From a virus: a stretch of 46,542 bases of DNA. The position numbers were made by a program, and so were the translations under genes. The stretch covers positions 1 to 46,542 of IMG/VR virus record IMGVR_UViG_3300045988_082870. The stretch is one strand, 5' to 3'. The notes under the pieces are model-generated. The model was not told where the DNA came from, did not search any database, and saw nothing but the letters and a program-made list of their open reading frames with translations. Positions 1 to 46,542 of this stretch are shown here, piece by piece (the first letter of the stretch is position 1; each line of letters starts with the position of its first letter).

Positions 1-55
1 AAATATCACATTTACGTTCTATCTTTGCCATATCAACATTTTTGAAAACAGATAA
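1..55. repeat. 55-bp terminal direct repeat, exact copy of 46488..46542 (circular-closure overlap or short terminal redundancy)
   Basis: Bases 1-55 (aaatatcacatttacgttctatctttgccatatcaacatttttgaaaacagataa) recur exactly at 46488-46542. The repeat includes the ATG and first codons (MAKIERKCDI) of the minus-strand gene 46249..46518. Confidence 0.95.
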
Positions 56-25255: not shown

Positions 25256-27787
25256 CTAATTTTTTTGCACAATTCCATGCGCCTGTGTAAGTATTTCTCT
25301 TTCAACAATGCCTGTTAGGCAGTCGCTGCAATCATCGTGAGCATTAGCCTTAAAGTTTCGCAAAAACTTTGTTACGGCCTCATAGAACGCCGGATAACGT
25401 GTTTCCCAATCGAACGGCATTAGAATGTGATATGTTACTAAACCGGCGTTCGTAATAATTCTGCTCTCCTTGTTGTCCGTTTGTGTAAACGAATAGATGC
25501 GTGCTGTTGTCTTTGGCTCTATTATCTTTGCAAAGCTCCTGCCGCCGTTGTTGCTCTCTATATATGCGTATTGCGTTGCTTCCCGGTTTAACATCATCGG
25601 CACAGCCTGTGTTGTCTTTTCTATTGGCTCGTCAGTGTAAACTATATCAGTAACGGCAAGGAACATGACGGGGCGGCCATGCTCATCCTTGGCATCCCGT
25701 GATATTATCTTGTTATAACATATTGAACAAAGATAGTCCGAGCCTGTATCTGCGCAATCTGTATAATTACCCTTAGCCACAAGGCTGCCCCAATCTTGCC
25801 ACCTAACATAAGTACGGAAAGGCTCGTACAAAAGGCCAACAGCACTGCCTGGCTGTCCTTGGTACAAGCAATCAAATTGCACCTTATCGAGCTTACGTTT
25901 CGACATCAGGCTTTCAAGGCTGTGTTTGCTCGGCCACAAGGCTTGCCCAAATTCTCGTGGGTCAAAGTCTGTTTTCTCGGTTGTCTTAATCGCTTCAAAG
26001 TTTATGCGTACCCATGCCCCACTTGGTATGTTCTGTAAATCTTCTTTTCGCTCAATGTCGATTACTCGCTCCGTCTTTTCTATCCGCCCCACCAAATCAT
26101 CGCTGTGCCAGCGTGTGAATACGATAAGCTCTTGGCTATCGTTGTGTAGTCGTGTCTTGACTACTGTCGTGTACCATTTCCACGCCGCTTCCCTAATTAC
26201 CGGGCTGTTAGCTTCTTGATAGTCCTTATAAACATCGTCCATTATCATTATGTCTACCGGCTTACCTGTCAGTGGGCCACCACGGCCGACAACTCGCAAA
26301 CTGCCGGTATGGCCGACACACTCTATCACATCGCTGTTACGCTGGTAAACGCTGGCAAATGTAACCTTATTACTACGTGATAAGTAAGTTTGCGGAAATA
26401 GCTCGTTGTATTCCGGGGTGTCGATAATTTTCTGAACATCTCGGTTGAAATCTCGTGCAAAGGTTGTTGAATAGCTGCCTATTGCCACTTTTTTATCCGG
26501 GTTGTTGCCTAAAACAAATGCCGGCAGCTTTCGGCTTGAGCCCTCGGAATTATGCGTTGGGATAAACGTATCGCCAACAAGATAAACGCCGCCCTCAACT
26601 TGGATACAATTCCCATAACCCAAATTATCCCTCTTTTCAATGGCAACAATCGCCCTTTTTTTATTCTTGGATAACGTTGTAATCTTTTTCCTTGGTACGG
26701 CGGTGGGGAATGCCATTGTAGGGTTGAAACAAAGTTGATAAACGACTTTACGGCCTTTTATTCCGCTGGTGCTCGTTTTAGGTACAAAGCTGCATACCAC
26801 TACCGATTGGCCGAGGGAACGGAGCATAAACGCCGCATCGTCAATTATCCTCTTGCTCGTGTTAGATATTGTCACACGTCCGTTCTTTTGGTAAACATAT
26901 CCGTCTGTATCTATAAGGCCAGCAATAACTTGCGCCCTTACCTCTACGGAATTGTATTTATATACATCGGGAATATGCTTGTTATTTATCAAGCCATATT
27001 CCGCCAACTTTATTTGCTTGCCAAAATAATAATATTCAACGCCTGTGTCTTTCTGCGTCCAAAAGCTGGTGGCCTGGTATGGCATTCGCTCTGTTATCTG
27101 ATAGTCCCCATTGCCTATCGTCATTTGCGGTGCGCTACTTTTGCCATCGCCTAACCATGCGCCCAAAGTATATGGGTCTATCTTTACGGTCTTATATGGG
27201 AAATTCACACAAACATTTGCATCAACTTGGTATTTGTATCGACTGCCCCTCTTGCCGCTTCCTCTGTATATGTCGCCACTCGCATAAATCACTTTTGTTT
27301 CCAACGTTTCTTCTTTATGCTTCGACCTATTGAATACCACCCATTCATGATTGCCGTGGCATTCTATACTTGCGCCATCGGAAAATTTTACAACGTATTC
27401 GGAACGTGTTTTTGGCGAAGTCCATAACACTTTTACTGGCTGGCCGTTACGGCCAAAGACATAATCGCCCACAGACAAATCCCCATGCCTTTTTATTCCG
27501 TTCGGCGTGACTACTTCTTGGCTGTCCGATATTTGTTTGCCGTGTTGCGGCGGCATAGTTACTATTAGTTTTTTTATCTTTCCTTTGGCGAAAAGGTTAA
27601 GTACGGTATAATATACCCGGTGGAATGGTTGTATGTCCAAATTCGGCTGCATATAGCGTGCAAAGGCCAACAGGTCATGCCGGGCTGCAACCTTGACAAT
27701 CTCCCGAGGGTTTTCCTGCAAATACTTAACGGCTGATAATAGCTCCTGCCGCTCCTGTTGTTGTTCGTTATTTGCTAAATCTGTCAT
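25256..27787 (-). CDS. terL: Terminase large subunit, interrupted by an intein (precursor 843 aa; spliced about 514 aa)
   Basis: The Walker A loop is split as MPPQHGK / intein / SEGSS. Walker B is VDIMIMDD. The C-terminal nuclease-type acidic motifs are DCADTGSDY and NAHDDCSD. The gene follows TerS. Confidence 0.85.
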   Translation of the reverse strand: MTDLANNEQQQERQELLSAVKYLQENPREIVKVAARHDLLAFARYMQPNLDIQPFHRVYYTVLNLFAKGKIKKLIVTMPPQHGKQISDSQEVVTPNGIKRHGDLSVGDYVFGRNGQPVKVLWTSPKTRSEYVVKFSDGASIECHGNHEWVVFNRSKHKEETLETKVIYASGDIYRGSGKRGSRYKYQVDANVCVNFPYKTVKIDPYTLGAWLGDGKSSAPQMTIGNGDYQITERMPYQATSFWTQKDTGVEYYYFGKQIKLAEYGLINNKHIPDVYKYNSVEVRAQVIAGLIDTDGYVYQKNGRVTISNTSKRIIDDAAFMLRSLGQSVVVCSFVPKTSTSGIKGRKVVYQLCFNPTMAFPTAVPRKKITTLSKNKKRAIVAIEKRDNLGYGNCIQVEGGVYLVGDTFIPTHNSEGSSRKLPAFVLGNNPDKKVAIGSYSTTFARDFNRDVQKIIDTPEYNELFPQTYLSRSNKVTFASVYQRNSDVIECVGHTGSLRVVGRGGPLTGKPVDIMIMDDVYKDYQEANSPVIREAAWKWYTTVVKTRLHNDSQELIVFTRWHSDDLVGRIEKTERVIDIERKEDLQNIPSGAWVRINFEAIKTTEKTDFDPREFGQALWPSKHSLESLMSKRKLDKVQFDCLYQGQPGSAVGLLYEPFRTYVRWQDWGSLVAKGNYTDCADTGSDYLCSICYNKIISRDAKDEHGRPVMFLAVTDIVYTDEPIEKTTQAVPMMLNREATQYAYIESNNGGRSFAKIIEPKTTARIYSFTQTDNKESRIITNAGLVTYHILMPFDWETRYPAFYEAVTKFLRNFKANAHDDCSDCLTGIVEREILTQAHGIVQKN
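26549..27535 (-). mobile_element. Intein with LAGLIDADG homing endonuclease domain (TerL residues 85-413)
   Basis: A block A-like start QISDSQEVVTPNG. Block B reads HGNHEW. The LAGLIDADG motifs are LGAWLGDGKS and IAGLIDTDGYV. Block F reads YGNCIQVEGGVYLVGD. The insert ends IPTHN and is followed by Ser. Confidence 0.8.
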
Positions 27788-27826: not shown

Positions 27827-28048
27827 TTATTTTACACTTTTCGCATTTTGCGGCGGTTTTGGTTTCCATTTGTCGCAAGCCGGCTCGCTGCGCAACCTCT
27901 TGCGGCGTTCCTCGTATGGGCATTTTAAACAAATCGGGTTGCCGTTTACATCGAGGTTTTTAAATTCGTATGAAAATTCGCCCCATCCACACTCGCCGCA
28001 TACGTGCTTTCTGTACTCCGGGACTTGCTTAATCTGTTTCTTTGCCAT
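27827..28048 (-). CDS. Small zinc-ribbon protein between TerS and TerL
   Basis: It contains CGECGWGEF...CLKCPY. The likely start is the ATG at 28048 (MAKKQIKQ); the track ORF extends to 28111 inside TerS. Confidence 0.55.
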   Translation of the reverse strand: MAKKQIKQVPEYRKHVCGECGWGEFSYEFKNLDVNGNPICLKCPYEERRKRLRSEPACDKWKPKPPQNAKSVK

Positions 28049-28712
28049 TTTTGCTCTCCTCTTGTCTTTTATTAAATTCTGCGTCTTGTAACTTATAAGC
28101 CATTTCGACAATCATATCCATAGGTAAAGCATTTACATCATATTTTGCTCCTGCCGGGCTTTCTTCCTTTGGCGGCTCATTATACACATTCACGTTTACC
28201 GGGGCGTTATAGCCTAATAGTTTCGCCCGGCGTTCTTGTACTTTTAACAACAAGTCCAAAAATCGAGGGTCGCCGTTTGTCGTTTCCAAACTTCTTTCGG
28301 CTAACTGTCCGCCGGTTGCGATATGGTCGTCAATGCTTCCGCCCTTAATCTTAGTCTTTCGCTTACTTCCTTTGCTTGCTTCCCATGCTGCCCATAGCTC
28401 CACCTCTATCTTGTCGAGCTTCTTGAGCTCTAACTGCATATAATTATCAATATCGGTAAACCGTTCTTTTTTCCACTCGGCTAATACCGAGTTTATGTCT
28501 TGATATACGGTCTTGTACGTTATAGTGTATGTTAGGCCGTTCTCGTGGTTTGCTTCGTTTAGGCGGTCGGCAATATCTCTGTAAGTATGGCCTTTTACAA
28601 ACAGGTTAGCGCAAAACCTCTTGTCTGCTTCTCTTTGCTCGACTGTCCTCTTTCCGCCTTTCATCTTTTGGTTTGCCTTGTATCGTGGATTGCCTTTTGC
28701 CCAGGGGTTCAT
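28029..28712 (-). CDS. terS: Terminase small subunit (putative)
   Basis: 227 aa with an N-terminal HTH-like region (GHTYRDIADRLN). The segment GDPRFLDLLLKVQERRAKLLGYN is typical of TerS oligomerisation regions. It lies immediately upstream of the TerL region. Confidence 0.7.
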   Translation of the reverse strand: MNPWAKGNPRYKANQKMKGGKRTVEQREADKRFCANLFVKGHTYRDIADRLNEANHENGLTYTITYKTVYQDINSVLAEWKKERFTDIDNYMQLELKKLDKIEVELWAAWEASKGSKRKTKIKGGSIDDHIATGGQLAERSLETTNGDPRFLDLLLKVQERRAKLLGYNAPVNVNVYNEPPKEESPAGAKYDVNALPMDMIVEMAYKLQDAEFNKRQEESKNGKETD

Positions 28713-28855: not shown

Positions 28856-29275
28856 TTAAGATGTTTTACTTTCTGATGCTGTTTCCTGTGCCCGGCTTTT
28901 TTCCTGTGCTTCGGTCTGCTGTTCTTCTTCGCTTTCTTGCATTAATGGTGTTGTTTGGCTCGGATAAATTCCGTTGTCTGCGTCATTGATTAGTATATCG
29001 TAGTAATCGGGTAAAACCGACAGGAAATCATATAGCTTATCCTCGTTAGTGCTTATAATGCTTATGGCCGTGCAATTTTCCTGTGGAAATGTCGTTGCGG
29101 TCAGCGTCATTACATCTGTAATGTAGCACATTGAAAATATTCCATTGTCTGTTGCGTCTGTATAACTTAATATCTTAACGCCTATATCTCCGAAAACCTT
29201 TTTAAACTTGGTTTTAAGCTGGCTTACGCTATTTATCCAGCCCGAATAATTCAATATCTTGGCTATCATATTCAA
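28856..29275 (-). CDS. Hypothetical protein with acidic C-terminus (139 aa)
   Basis: ORF track. It overlaps the methyltransferase 3' end by 47 nt. Confidence 0.5.
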   Translation of the reverse strand: MNMIAKILNYSGWINSVSQLKTKFKKVFGDIGVKILSYTDATDNGIFSMCYITDVMTLTATTFPQENCTAISIISTNEDKLYDFLSVLPDYYDILINDADNGIYPSQTTPLMQESEEEQQTEAQEKSRAQETASESKTS

Positions 29276-30746
29276 TCTTTTTAAATTGTTCCCTAATTTT
29301 GCTTTGCTCTCCCTTGAAAAACACTAAAACGTTTTTATTTACCGAAACGACCTTGCGGCTGTCAATGGCTCTGTTTATTTGGAAATTATGCTCACCTTTG
29401 AAAAACACTAAAACGTTTTGGTGATTTTTGGCTATCTTGCGCATTTCCATATACTTCCCGGCTCGCAGTGCTGTGCTCGCTCCGCTTTCTATTAAGATAA
29501 GTTCGTTATAAAGCCCTGCGCCGTGTTTCTTGAAAATACGCTTTATATCGCCTACGAAATCGTAGTAAAAGCCGGTTTTCTTGTTTCTTACATCGCCTAC
29601 TACAACAACTGCAAATCTATTTTCACGTAAACATTTCAATGCGCCGGCAAAACCGTTTTCCAAAATATTCAAAAATGCTTCGTAGGTTGCGGCGTTGCTT
29701 GCGTCATTAGGTAAATCGCTGTAATGTTCCAAATCGAAATATGGTGGGCAACTCATAACCAAATCCACGCTATTTTCTTCGAAATGGTTTGCTACGTTCT
29801 GCCCATCGTCAAGAATATAATTTACTCGTAAGTTAGGAAAACGCTGTAATATCTTGTTGTTCTCCTGTACCTGTTCCGGGCGTATTTCTATACCTGTAAA
29901 ATCGTTTCCTAAATATCCGAAAACTAAGCCTTTGTAAACATCGCCGGCGAAAGGGTCTATTATCTTACATCCGGGATAACCAAACCAACGTACTATTATT
30001 TCGGATAATACAGGGTCAAATATACTCGTTCCGCTGCCCAATGCCTGCGCTTCGACTTTTCGTTTTTCTTCTTCTGAAACAAATCGCTCTAAATATTCGG
30101 CAAAGGATATTCCAAGCTCTTTGCGTCTTAATTTGCTGCGCTCGTAAATCGTCTTATACTTTAATTCCGGGCTTTTCATGTTAGTGTCTTGGCGGCTCTC
30201 TCCATTCGCTCCAATAATCGCTTTCCATTGCTTTTTGCGCTGCTGCCAATATCCTTGCCGTGTGTCTAATATACTAAACGGCGGTATAACGAATTTATCC
30301 AATAGCGAAACATGGTTACTTGCCGTTTTCTTGACCTTTTGTTCTTCGAGCTTGGTTAAGCCCCAATCAACCAAATTCATACTGTCGAACTTATCCTCAA
30401 GTATGTCGAAATCCCAATCTCCGCCGAGGGCGTTTGCCGTGATGTTTGCCTTTTCTCGCTGTTTTTCATCCCAGCGCACCTGTCGGTAATTTAATTTTTG
30501 GCCGTCAAATATGACATATCCCCATGCAACTGTGCCCTGCTTATTCGGTGTGTCGTATTTTTCTACGATGTCGATTTGGCACTTGTTTATGTCAATAACC
30601 CTGCTTCGCTGGTTGCCGGAAATAATTTCATCGCTATTTAAATCGTGTACTATTCCCGACAAGTCGCCAAGTTCTTCAATGTTAGCTTTTAATTTAGCTA
30701 ATTGTTTTTCGCTTATTTTTCGTGGATTTTTATTGTACTGCTTCAT
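29229..30746 (-). CDS. ParB-like nuclease domain fused to an N6-adenine/N4-cytosine DNA methyltransferase
   Basis: The N-terminus (KLKANIEELGDLSGIVHDLNSDEIISGNQR) is ParB/Srx-like. The SAM motif I is IIDPFAGD and the catalytic motif IV is SCPPY. The C-terminal motif NVLVFFKGE occurs twice. Confidence 0.8.
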   Translation of the reverse strand: MKQYNKNPRKISEKQLAKLKANIEELGDLSGIVHDLNSDEIISGNQRSRVIDINKCQIDIVEKYDTPNKQGTVAWGYVIFDGQKLNYRQVRWDEKQREKANITANALGGDWDFDILEDKFDSMNLVDWGLTKLEEQKVKKTASNHVSLLDKFVIPPFSILDTRQGYWQQRKKQWKAIIGANGESRQDTNMKSPELKYKTIYERSKLRRKELGISFAEYLERFVSEEEKRKVEAQALGSGTSIFDPVLSEIIVRWFGYPGCKIIDPFAGDVYKGLVFGYLGNDFTGIEIRPEQVQENNKILQRFPNLRVNYILDDGQNVANHFEENSVDLVMSCPPYFDLEHYSDLPNDASNAATYEAFLNILENGFAGALKCLRENRFAVVVVGDVRNKKTGFYYDFVGDIKRIFKKHGAGLYNELILIESGASTALRAGKYMEMRKIAKNHQNVLVFFKGEHNFQINRAIDSRKVVSVNKNVLVFFKGEQSKIREQFKKIEYDSQDIELFGLDK

Positions 30747-46248: not shown

Positions 46249-46518
46249 TTAATCATGTATGCCCAAATCCATATCGCCCCATTGGTCGAAATCTGCTGTG
46301 TCATAGTCGCCAAAACTCTGCGGCGGATACTCAATCCAATTTTCCCGGCGAATATTGTTTAATGCAACCCGGCGAGGGTCATATCCGGGTTTGCTGCGTT
46401 CTCTTTTTTTTGCCGCACAACTCTTTGAACAACACTTGCCCCATCCTCTTTTCAAATCTCTTGTGTCGGCCATATATATTCGGCCACAAATATCACATTT
46501 ACGTTCTATCTTTGCCAT
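46249..46518 (-). CDS. Small zinc-ribbon (FCS-like) protein, last gene of the promoter-B unit across the circular junction
   Basis: 89 aa with CDICG...GKCCSKSC. Its first 31 nt also appear at window positions 1-31 because of the terminal repeat. Confidence 0.6.
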   Translation of the reverse strand: MAKIERKCDICGRIYMADTRDLKRGWGKCCSKSCAAKKRERSKPGYDPRRVALNNIRRENWIEYPPQSFGDYDTADFDQWGDMDLGIHD

Positions 46519-46542
46519 ATCAACATTTTTGAAAACAGATAA
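46488..46542. repeat. Second copy of the 55-bp terminal repeat
   Basis: Identical to 1..55. Confidence 0.95.

Follow-up and report, generated by a model that had tools for sequence, protein, structure and literature searches.

A probable class 3 intein with a LAGLIDADG endonuclease domain in the terminase P-loop of a Bacteroidota phage

The viral genome record IMGVR_UViG_3300045988_082870, analysed here over its full 46,542 nucleotides (the window), encodes a large terminase subunit (TerL) whose ATPase P-loop is interrupted by a 329-residue insert. We consider it very probable that this insert is a full-length, functional class 3 intein with a LAGLIDADG homing endonuclease (HEN), placed between the Walker A Lys and Ser of TerL in a B124-14-like siphovirus of Bacteroidota. 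Class 3 inteins in TerL P-loops are already known, having been described in 2010 and 2016 (PMC2807308, PMC5050341), and the window intein is a further example. Modestly new are the occurrence of class 3 inteins in Bacteroidota phages and the presence of two different class 3 inteins, together with empty alleles, at one site in near-identical TerL proteins.

Results

The insert occupies a single bond of the TerL Walker A motif

The TerL precursor open reading frame (ORF; 25256..27787, minus strand) encodes 843 amino acids followed by a stop codon. A first-pass annotation, made by a model from the letters alone, had proposed that this frame is split at the P-loop by an insert at residues 85–413, and these limits proved exact: the in-frame insert of 987 bp, or 329 aa (Gln1–Asn329; 26549..27535, minus), lies between Lys84 and Ser414 of Walker A. 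The N-extein (residues 1–84; 27536..27787, minus) ends in one half of the motif, PPQHGK (27536..27553). The C-extein (residues 414–843; 25259..26548, minus) begins with the Walker A Ser-Glu and contains Walker B, DIMIMDD (residues 512–518; 26234..26254, minus), and an RNase H-like nuclease domain. In silico removal of residues 85–413 restores PPQHGKSE and leaves a protein of 514 aa with the junction PPQHGKSEGSS.

This junction exists in nature. With the in-silico spliced TerL as query we retrieved 6,789 relatives, the second best of which (P0002) is exactly 514 aa long, matches the whole query (100%) at 93% identity and has the junction PPQHGK/SEGSS, where the slash, here and below, marks the bond of insertion. 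Its DNA (L001) matches the window with 99.3% nucleotide identity as far as position 27536, and the match picks up again at 26546, leaving a single clean 987-bp insertion in the window; the empty site of the intein-free allele reads ...CCGCCGCAGCACGGAAAG/AGCGAGGGCTCAAGC... In a MAFFT alignment of 121 sequences (the window TerL plus 120 cluster representatives), PQxGK directly precedes S in 101, whereas in 20 an insert of 269–329 aa occupies exactly that bond. All 20 inserts carry the His, Trp, Cys, Thr, His and Asn residues of the splicing blocks and a Ser at +1. Such a pattern is far beyond chance. The search among related TerL genes proposed in the first-pass annotation thus yielded intein-free alleles and defines the bond of the predicted homing site as GK/S.

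Because the N-extein ends in Lys and the intein ends in Asn, the boundary cannot be shifted. An alternative start at Ser87, which would supply a nucleophile, was rejected: it leaves HGKQI/SEGSS, but the 101 empty alleles read GK/S.

Profile searches gave a concordant picture of the host protein. The Pfam Terminase_6N match changed from E 6.5e-5 (residues 418–577) with the insert to E 1.1e-8 (residues 78–248, across the junction) without it, and TerL scored 43.2 bits against NCBIfam TIGR01630 (cut-off 41.65); matches to Terminase_6C and T7 RNaseH-like fell below their cut-offs. Walker A, Walker B and a C-terminal nuclease domain are all present, and the matches in cultured phages are annotated TerL, as expected of a large terminase. 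A precise in-frame insertion into a conserved host motif, with uninterrupted alleles among the relatives, is likewise what is expected of an intein in general.

The insert has the predicted architecture of an endonuclease-bearing intein

All blocks of the intein could be located on the minus strand. Block A (QISDSQEVVTPNG; 27497..27535) opens with the non-nucleophilic Gln85. Block B (GASIECHGNHEWVV; 27335..27376) holds His147 (B:10) and Trp149 (B:12), both within HGNHEW (residues 144–149), and a lineage-specific Cys143-His144 pair at B:6–B:7. Block F (YGNCIQVEGGVYLVGD; 26570..26617) includes NCIQVE (393–398) with Cys394 (F:4), the predicted initiating nucleophile, which aligns to Cys118 of the Mycobacterium smegmatis DnaB-1 (Msm DnaB-1) intein. 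Block G (TFIPTHN/S; 26546..26569) comprises PTHN (410–413), with Thr411 (G:5), His412 and Asn413, and is followed by Ser414 (+1). The LAGLIDADG domain spans approximately 26666..27220, with motif 1, LGAWLGDGKS (residues 208–217), at 27137..27166 and motif 2, IAGLIDTDGYV (288–298), at 26894..26926. Lys270 (26978..26980) belongs to a KxIP element preceding motif 2 and is the equivalent of Lys301 in the KNIP element of PI-SceI. Every residue and motif quoted in the first-pass annotation, Walker B included, lies where it had been placed.

Pfam recognized the middle of the insert as Hom_end (E 6.7e-9) and LAGLIDADG_3 (E 1.3e-8), both above cut-offs. In HMMER searches against PDB sequences, the two LAGLIDADG motifs and KxIP aligned to the GDG, DSDG and Lys301 of PI-SceI, and the N- and C-terminal parts of the insert aligned to Msm DnaB-1 (6BS8). 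The LAGLIDADG motif residues are kept across a 42-sequence alignment, with both catalytic Asp and the Lys301 equivalent conserved. An AlphaFold2 model built from this alignment reached a mean predicted local distance difference test (pLDDT) score of 90.7 and a predicted template modelling (pTM) score of 0.89. Foldseek matched the whole modelled intein to PI-SceI in the PDB (E 1.7e-19, TM score 0.72 over the query) and also to TliVMA, PhoVMA and PI-PfuI. Among mini-inteins, the class 3 inteins of M. chimaera DnaB-1 (Mch DnaB-1; 6RIX/6RIY) and Msm DnaB-1 (6BS8) came first by E-value and had the highest identity, 27–29%, while I-DmoI matched the endonuclease lobe. Foldseek probability was 1.00 for PI-SceI, TliVMA, MchDnaB-1, MsmDnaB-1, gp41-1 and the Hedgehog autoprocessing domain.

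The Pfam and NCBIfam models of the splicing domain (Intein_splicing, Hint, TIGR01445/01443) gave no significant match on the insert, with only Hom_end_hint appearing at E 0.11, so the HINT assignment is based on sequence matches in the PDB together with the fold of the model. The first-pass annotation had named the lack of any HINT-fold match as an outcome that would speak against an intein; sequence and structure alignment to known inteins yielded such a match. By alignment and by model, the insert is an intein with a predicted HINT fold and a LAGLIDADG endonuclease domain, the latter having two motifs with a catalytic acidic residue in a modelled alpha-beta-beta-alpha-beta-beta-alpha fold.

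The splicing domain carries the class 3 signature

Class 3 inteins have a non-nucleophilic residue 1, a co-varying Trp B:12/Cys F:4/Thr G:5 (WCT) triplet and a Ser or Thr at +1, and they use an obligate block-F Cys to make the first branched intermediate (PMC2807308, PMC5222942, PMC7664689). The WCT signature proposed for the insert held up in alignment. After in silico deletion of the endonuclease, the 147-aa splicing domain aligned end to end with 6BS8 (E 4.7e-10; query 8–147 to chain 8–139) and with 6RIX (E 3.2e-7). His147 and Trp149 fall in register with His65 and Trp67 of Msm DnaB-1, Cys394 with the catalytic Cys, and Thr-His-Asn with the same tripeptide (PTHN in both 6BS8 and 6RIX). The only other PDB intein that the splicing domain matched was gp41-1, for which an engineered WCT variant outscored the wild type.

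The signature is nearly invariant in relatives. In 74 complete relatives from several host proteins, the B:10 His and the Trp, Cys, Thr, His and Asn are present in 74/74; at +1, 72 have Ser and 2 have Thr, 73 have Lys at −1, and neither Ser nor Thr occurs at position 1. When 1.84 billion cluster representatives were scanned exhaustively by HMMER with the intein, 582 relatives reached E<=1e-30 and 11,715 reached E<=1e-10. For the nearest 140 (50%-cluster representatives with complete domains among the top matches), the full WCT triplet occurs in 139/140 (Trp in 139/140, Cys F:4 in 140/140), Thr G:5 and the terminal Asn are invariant, +1 is Ser in 130 and Thr in 10, and −2/−1 is Gly-Lys in about 130. 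Counted over these relatives, gathered in the present analysis, position 1 of the 139 WCT sequences is Leu in 57, Gln in 36, Ala in 14, Glu in 13, Lys in 8 and another residue in 9; Cys occurs in 2/140. The Gln at position 1 that had been singled out is therefore present but not special. With Gln85 at position 1, Trp B:12, Cys F:4, a Thr G:5-His-Asn end and Ser414 at +1, the sequence of the insert shows every feature by which class 3 is defined (PMC2807308).

The splicing steps can be modelled by homology to the inteins of mycobacteriophage Bethlehem DnaB (MP-Be DnaB) and Msm/Mch DnaB-1. TerL would be made as an 843-aa precursor with a broken P-loop. Cys394, activated by His147 with the help of Trp149 and Thr411, would attack the Lys84-Gln85 bond to give a block-F thioester branch. 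The N-extein would then be transferred to Ser414, cyclization of Asn413 would free the 329-aa intein, and an O-N shift would yield the 514-aa TerL with PPQHGKSE restored. The P-loop would be restored only in spliced TerL, so packaging would require splicing. Splicing itself, the Cys394 branch and the endonuclease activity are all attributed to the insert by homology.

A different chemistry is conceivable: in the manner of class 2 KlbA inteins, Ser414 could itself attack the Lys84-Gln85 bond, or another route could be taken, with Cys394 playing only a structural part. The absence of a position 1 nucleophile is common to class 2 and class 3 (PMC7664689), and a block-F branched intermediate is not visible from sequence alone. 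However, class 2 inteins lack the WCT triplet, and in one of them, Mja KlbA, residue F:4 is Asp (PMC2807308). The triplet is invariant in 74/74 and 139/140 relatives, and, gp41-1 aside, the sole solved homologues found by sequence search are proven class 3 inteins. Cys F:4 is essential in MP-Be DnaB (PMC2807308) and is the catalytic residue of Msm DnaB-1 (PMC5222942, PMC6195587). A non-class 3 route is thus very unlikely, and class 3 splicing remains the preferred mechanism.

Purifying selection is strongest on the splicing blocks

Compared with the orthologous Gln1 intein of a relative (L003; 89% nucleotide identity), the window intein has an overall ratio of nonsynonymous to synonymous substitution rates (dN/dS) of 0.079, with 0.027 in HINT-N, 0.015 in HINT-C and 0.178 in the HEN domain; the C-extein value is 0.149. 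Splicing is indirectly supported by the values of 0.015–0.027 on the splicing blocks and by viable cultured phages with orthologues. These data also bear on the idea that the insert is decaying or non-splicing and that TerL and the genome are defective. As a metagenome-type assembly, the window comes without a phenotype, which leaves room for a defective element. But the 843-codon frame is intact with every catalytic residue in place, purifying selection on the splicing blocks is very strong, the genome is a complete circular assembly, and the plaque-forming phages B124-14 and BK649P1 have orthologues; we regard a defective element as barely credible.

Allelic states point to homing

Three states of the site occur in near-identical TerL backgrounds. 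Besides the Gln1 intein and the empty site, there is an Ala1-type intein (ALPI[ED]TPILTT..., AAHEHLW, VNCIQVEGGMYLAG..PTHN), also class 3, which is approximately 35–40% identical to the window intein and accounts for 10/20 P-loop inserts of the TerL family. In P0001 (L002:3001-5514; ENA ERZ809137 contig, 46,434 bp), for example, an Ala1 intein of 323 aa that starts with ALPIETPILTT and is ~37% identical to the window intein sits at the identical Lys/Ser bond, and the exteins of the two proteins are 96% identical. Intein-bearing and empty alleles pair at 100% extein identity for P0075 (Ala1 type) and P0068 (empty), and at 99% for both P0069 (Gln1) with P0064 (empty) and P0112 (Glu1) with P0095 (empty). 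Different inteins face each other at 97% in P0070 (Gln1) and P0071 (Ala1) and at 95% in P0061 (Glu1) and P0063 (Ala1).

The mismatches that separate the window from the empty allele are concentrated around the junction. The junction lies at nt 252 of the aligned extein, and 5 of the 8 mismatches in its first 500 nt fall within 12 nt of that point; the surrounding few hundred nucleotides are 97–99% identical between the window and L001. The junction differences are synonymous: the window reads CAA CAC GGC AAA/TCC (26546..26548, 27536..27544), and the empty allele reads CAG CAC GGA AAG/AGC (L001:10243-10257). Either a short co-conversion tract or divergence of the target site could account for this cluster.

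In the homing model, the endonuclease would cut intein-free terL alleles during co-infection and the intein would be copied in, which would explain its patchy distribution. Homing is indirectly indicated by the sporadic presence and absence of the intein at 95–100% extein identity and by the junction-clustered mismatches. It is also conceivable that the intein splices with an inactive endonuclease and is spread by vertical inheritance or ordinary recombination. The HEN dN/dS, 0.18 when rounded, is six to ten times the splicing-domain value, one relative (P0057) has a shortened, 269-aa version, and the junction codons follow no consistent pattern over distant alleles. Yet a value of 0.18 is still clear purifying selection, and both LAGLIDADG motifs, both catalytic Asp and the equivalent of PI-SceI Lys301 are conserved. 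Moreover, presence and absence vary at 99–100% extein identity, the two intein types alternate in at least six extein backgrounds, and mismatches are concentrated at the junction. On balance a dead endonuclease is unlikely, and an active, homing one is the better account.

A general codon signature of co-conversion, with AAA/TCC in intein-bearing and AAG/AGC in empty alleles, was tried on ten alleles and dropped. Since the pattern fails in distant alleles, a co-conversion reading applies locally, to the trio of window, L001 and L002.

Several points weigh against a functional, homing class 3 intein in a Bacteroidota phage. WCT grafted onto a class 1 intein failed to yield splicing (PMC7664689), so the signature alone is not proof of mechanism. 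Block B:7 is His in the window intein, as in 119/140 closest relatives, rather than the Asp of the mycobacterial DxxH (PMC6195587). Splicing of the window intein and of its Bacteroidota-phage orthologues is argued from homology, not from biochemistry. The AAA/TCC versus AAG/AGC junction pattern is not general over more distant alleles. Finally, the host of the window phage, although well supported, is placed at the level of the phylum only.

Orthologues are present in deposited phages

Inteins of the same lineage occupy the same Lys/Ser bond in the same TerL family in Bacteroides phages B124-14, BK649P1 and BF486P1 and in Porphyromonas phage 005a/b. The cultured B124-14 (YP_005102508) has a Glu1 orthologue, PPQTGK/ELSDST...HGKHEW...GNCIQVEGGVYLVGETFVPTHN/SEGSS, and Gln1 versions are found in BK649P1 and 005b; vB_BfrS_23, BKO1-3 and PD491P1 have empty terL genes. 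The lineage shares the motifs ELSDST... or QISDNQ..., HG[KN]HEW and GNCIQVEGG.YLVG.TF.PTHN/SEGS, but exteins and intein together are only 53–58% identical to those of the window. In the deposited orthologue records the gene is named 'terminase large subunit' or 'hypothetical protein' and has no intein feature. PHROGs TerL families already include such inteins, phrog_36964 matching the insert at 6e-32.

The phage genome and its host

An exact 55-bp direct repeat at the ends of the window (1..55 and 46488..46542) points to a circular assembly and hence to a complete genome of ~46.49 kb. The GC content is 40.8%, tRNA genes are absent, and every ORF of at least 150 aa except one is on the minus strand. 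Among 50,697 phage records, megablast found none that matched window positions 1–25000. TerL matches in cultured phages, all below 60% identity, come from Bacteroides, Parabacteroides, Alistipes, Elizabethkingia and Porphyromonas phages, and the nearest genomic copies of the intein come from a Bacteroidales and a Porphyromonas metagenome-assembled genome. A Bacteroidota host, as the first-pass annotation had surmised, is well supported at the phylum level because these TerL relatives and nearest intein copies are Bacteroidota.

Discussion

The best PDB sequence matches of the window intein, Msm DnaB-1 (6BS8) and Mch DnaB-1 (6RIX/6RIY), share its HINT fold, its P-loop GK/S or GK/T site and a +1 Ser. 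They differ in being mini-inteins of 139–145 aa that lack an endonuclease, start with Ala1, have a DxxH block B and reside in a bacterial replicative helicase, whereas the window intein has a full LAGLIDADG domain, Gln1 and a C-H-x-x-H block B and resides in a phage TerL. Msm DnaB-1, the closest solved relative, is reversibly blocked by a disulfide that involves its catalytic Cys; the redox partner, Cys48, is replaced by Glu in the window intein. The class 3 prototype, the Bethlehem DnaB intein (PMC2807308), resembles the window intein in its non-nucleophilic residue 1, WCT triplet, +1 Thr or Ser, full length (341 aa) and phage origin, but it has Pro1 and resides in the DnaB-like helicase of an actinobacteriophage; it was compared by description and was not among the close homologues retrieved. 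PI-SceI (the VMA1 intein) and other inteins combining HINT and LAGLIDADG domains (1EF0, 1VDE, 7QSU, 1DQ3) share the two-domain architecture (TM score 0.72). PI-SceI, however, is class 1 (Cys1, Asp-type F:4, Cys+1), has an extra DNA-recognition region and is only 16–18% identical to the window intein.

Class 3 inteins have been noted in phage terminase large subunits, mostly in P-loops (PMC2807308). In mycobacteriophage TerL, where class 3 inteins occur, the Lys/Thr P-loop position was called a 'classic' insertion (Kelley et al. 2016, PMC5050341), and a survey of actinobacteriophages counted 287 class 3 inteins, most of them in TerL and Cas4 (Gosselin et al. 2025, bioRxiv 10.1101/2025.01.02.630785). 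Actinobacteriophage TerL inteins, like that of the window, lie in the ATPase domain, including the P-loop Lys/Thr or Lys/Ser bond, and class 3 forms with LAGLIDADG HENs are abundant. Their phages are unrelated to the window phage, with Actinobacteria as hosts and TerL proteins of the Terminase_1 and Terminase_6-like families. Literature searches on inteins in Bacteroides or Porphyromonas phage terminases found no paper.

The window intein leaves knowledge of intein mechanisms unchanged. Its interest lies in taking class 3 inteins beyond Actinobacteria and the phages of Actinobacteria, to which their study has so far been almost confined, into Bacteroidota siphoviruses that are abundant in the gut and mouth. 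An unannotated intein in the packaging ATPase of B124-14, BK649P1 and P. gingivalis phage 005 matters for annotation, TerL phylogenies, size expectations and terminase expression. The empty, Gln1 and Ala1 alleles in near-identical terL genes form a convenient natural system in which to study homing, the replacement of one intein by another and co-conversion. Since the recorded host is B. fragilis for B124-14 and B. fragilis GB124 for vB_BfrS_23, the two phages probably share a host strain, and the three-allele system should be tractable with them in GB124.

Cys143-His144 (27356..27361) forms C-H-x-x-H with the catalytic His147, to which the nucleophile Cys394 can be added. The Cys is found in 84/140 relatives and the His in 119/140; neither the Ala1 type nor the mycobacterial class 3 inteins, with their DxxH, have the pair. 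It could be a metal or redox site. It is a speculative and rather improbable extension that Cys143-His144, His147 and Cys394 form such a site and make TerL maturation, and with it packaging, depend on the reducing and zinc-poor cytoplasm of an anaerobic host, and, separately, that the Gln1, Ala1 and empty states compete as three alleles.

Neighbouring genes and other intein sites

In the close relative L002, terL is directly preceded by a T5orf172/MUG113 gene (L002:2448-2996) that may encode a free-standing endonuclease. At this place the window has a gap of just 240 nt, which contains a 94-aa CxxC-rich ORF (27827..28111, minus) with no PHROG match. Next to terL on its upstream side, the window has a 227-aa gene (28029..28712, minus) that matches phrog_645 and its label 'Rnase E', a label also used in B124-14 and BKO1-3. 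The gene in the same position is annotated as small terminase (TerS) in Porphyromonas phage 005b and has an Sf6_terminase match in L003 and L012; by gene position, the 227-aa protein may be a mislabelled TerS. A 505-aa fusion of ParB-N-like and DNA methyltransferase parts (29229..30746, minus) matches phrog_498 at 1e-102 and has an apparent internal duplication, with KNxxVLVFFKGE occurring twice near its C-terminus.

A second TerL site is occupied in P0007 (L012:501-3017), and also in P0026 and P0039, which have no P-loop intein: a class-1-type intein (Cys1, Cys+1) sits in the AHDD motif of the nuclease domain. Its middle contains no in-frame endonuclease fold. A same-strand, out-of-frame ORF of 216 aa (L012:2252-2902) matches the Pfam HNH_3 family (5.6e-15) and has treble-clef zinc fingers, so that ~650 nt would be read in two frames. 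Out-of-frame HENs within inteins have reportedly been described only recently, in actinophages. At the corresponding position (25310..25354; TerL 812–826) the window reads ANAHDDCSDCLTG and intein-free relatives read ANAHDDAPDALTG, while for P0007 the sequence predicted after splicing is AHDDACDALTG. In the window TerL the site is flanked by two extra Cys.

Related inteins also occur outside terminases. Approximately 50 clusters of dCTP deaminases (P0149–P0207) carry a related class 3 intein of 28–30% identity, ARLEGK/ALALDTPVPTP...VRCIQVAS..FIPTHN/SSLGR, inserted after a GK dipeptide in a host protein that is not a P-loop NTPase. Further hosts of related inteins are RecA, DnaB and UvrD-type helicases.

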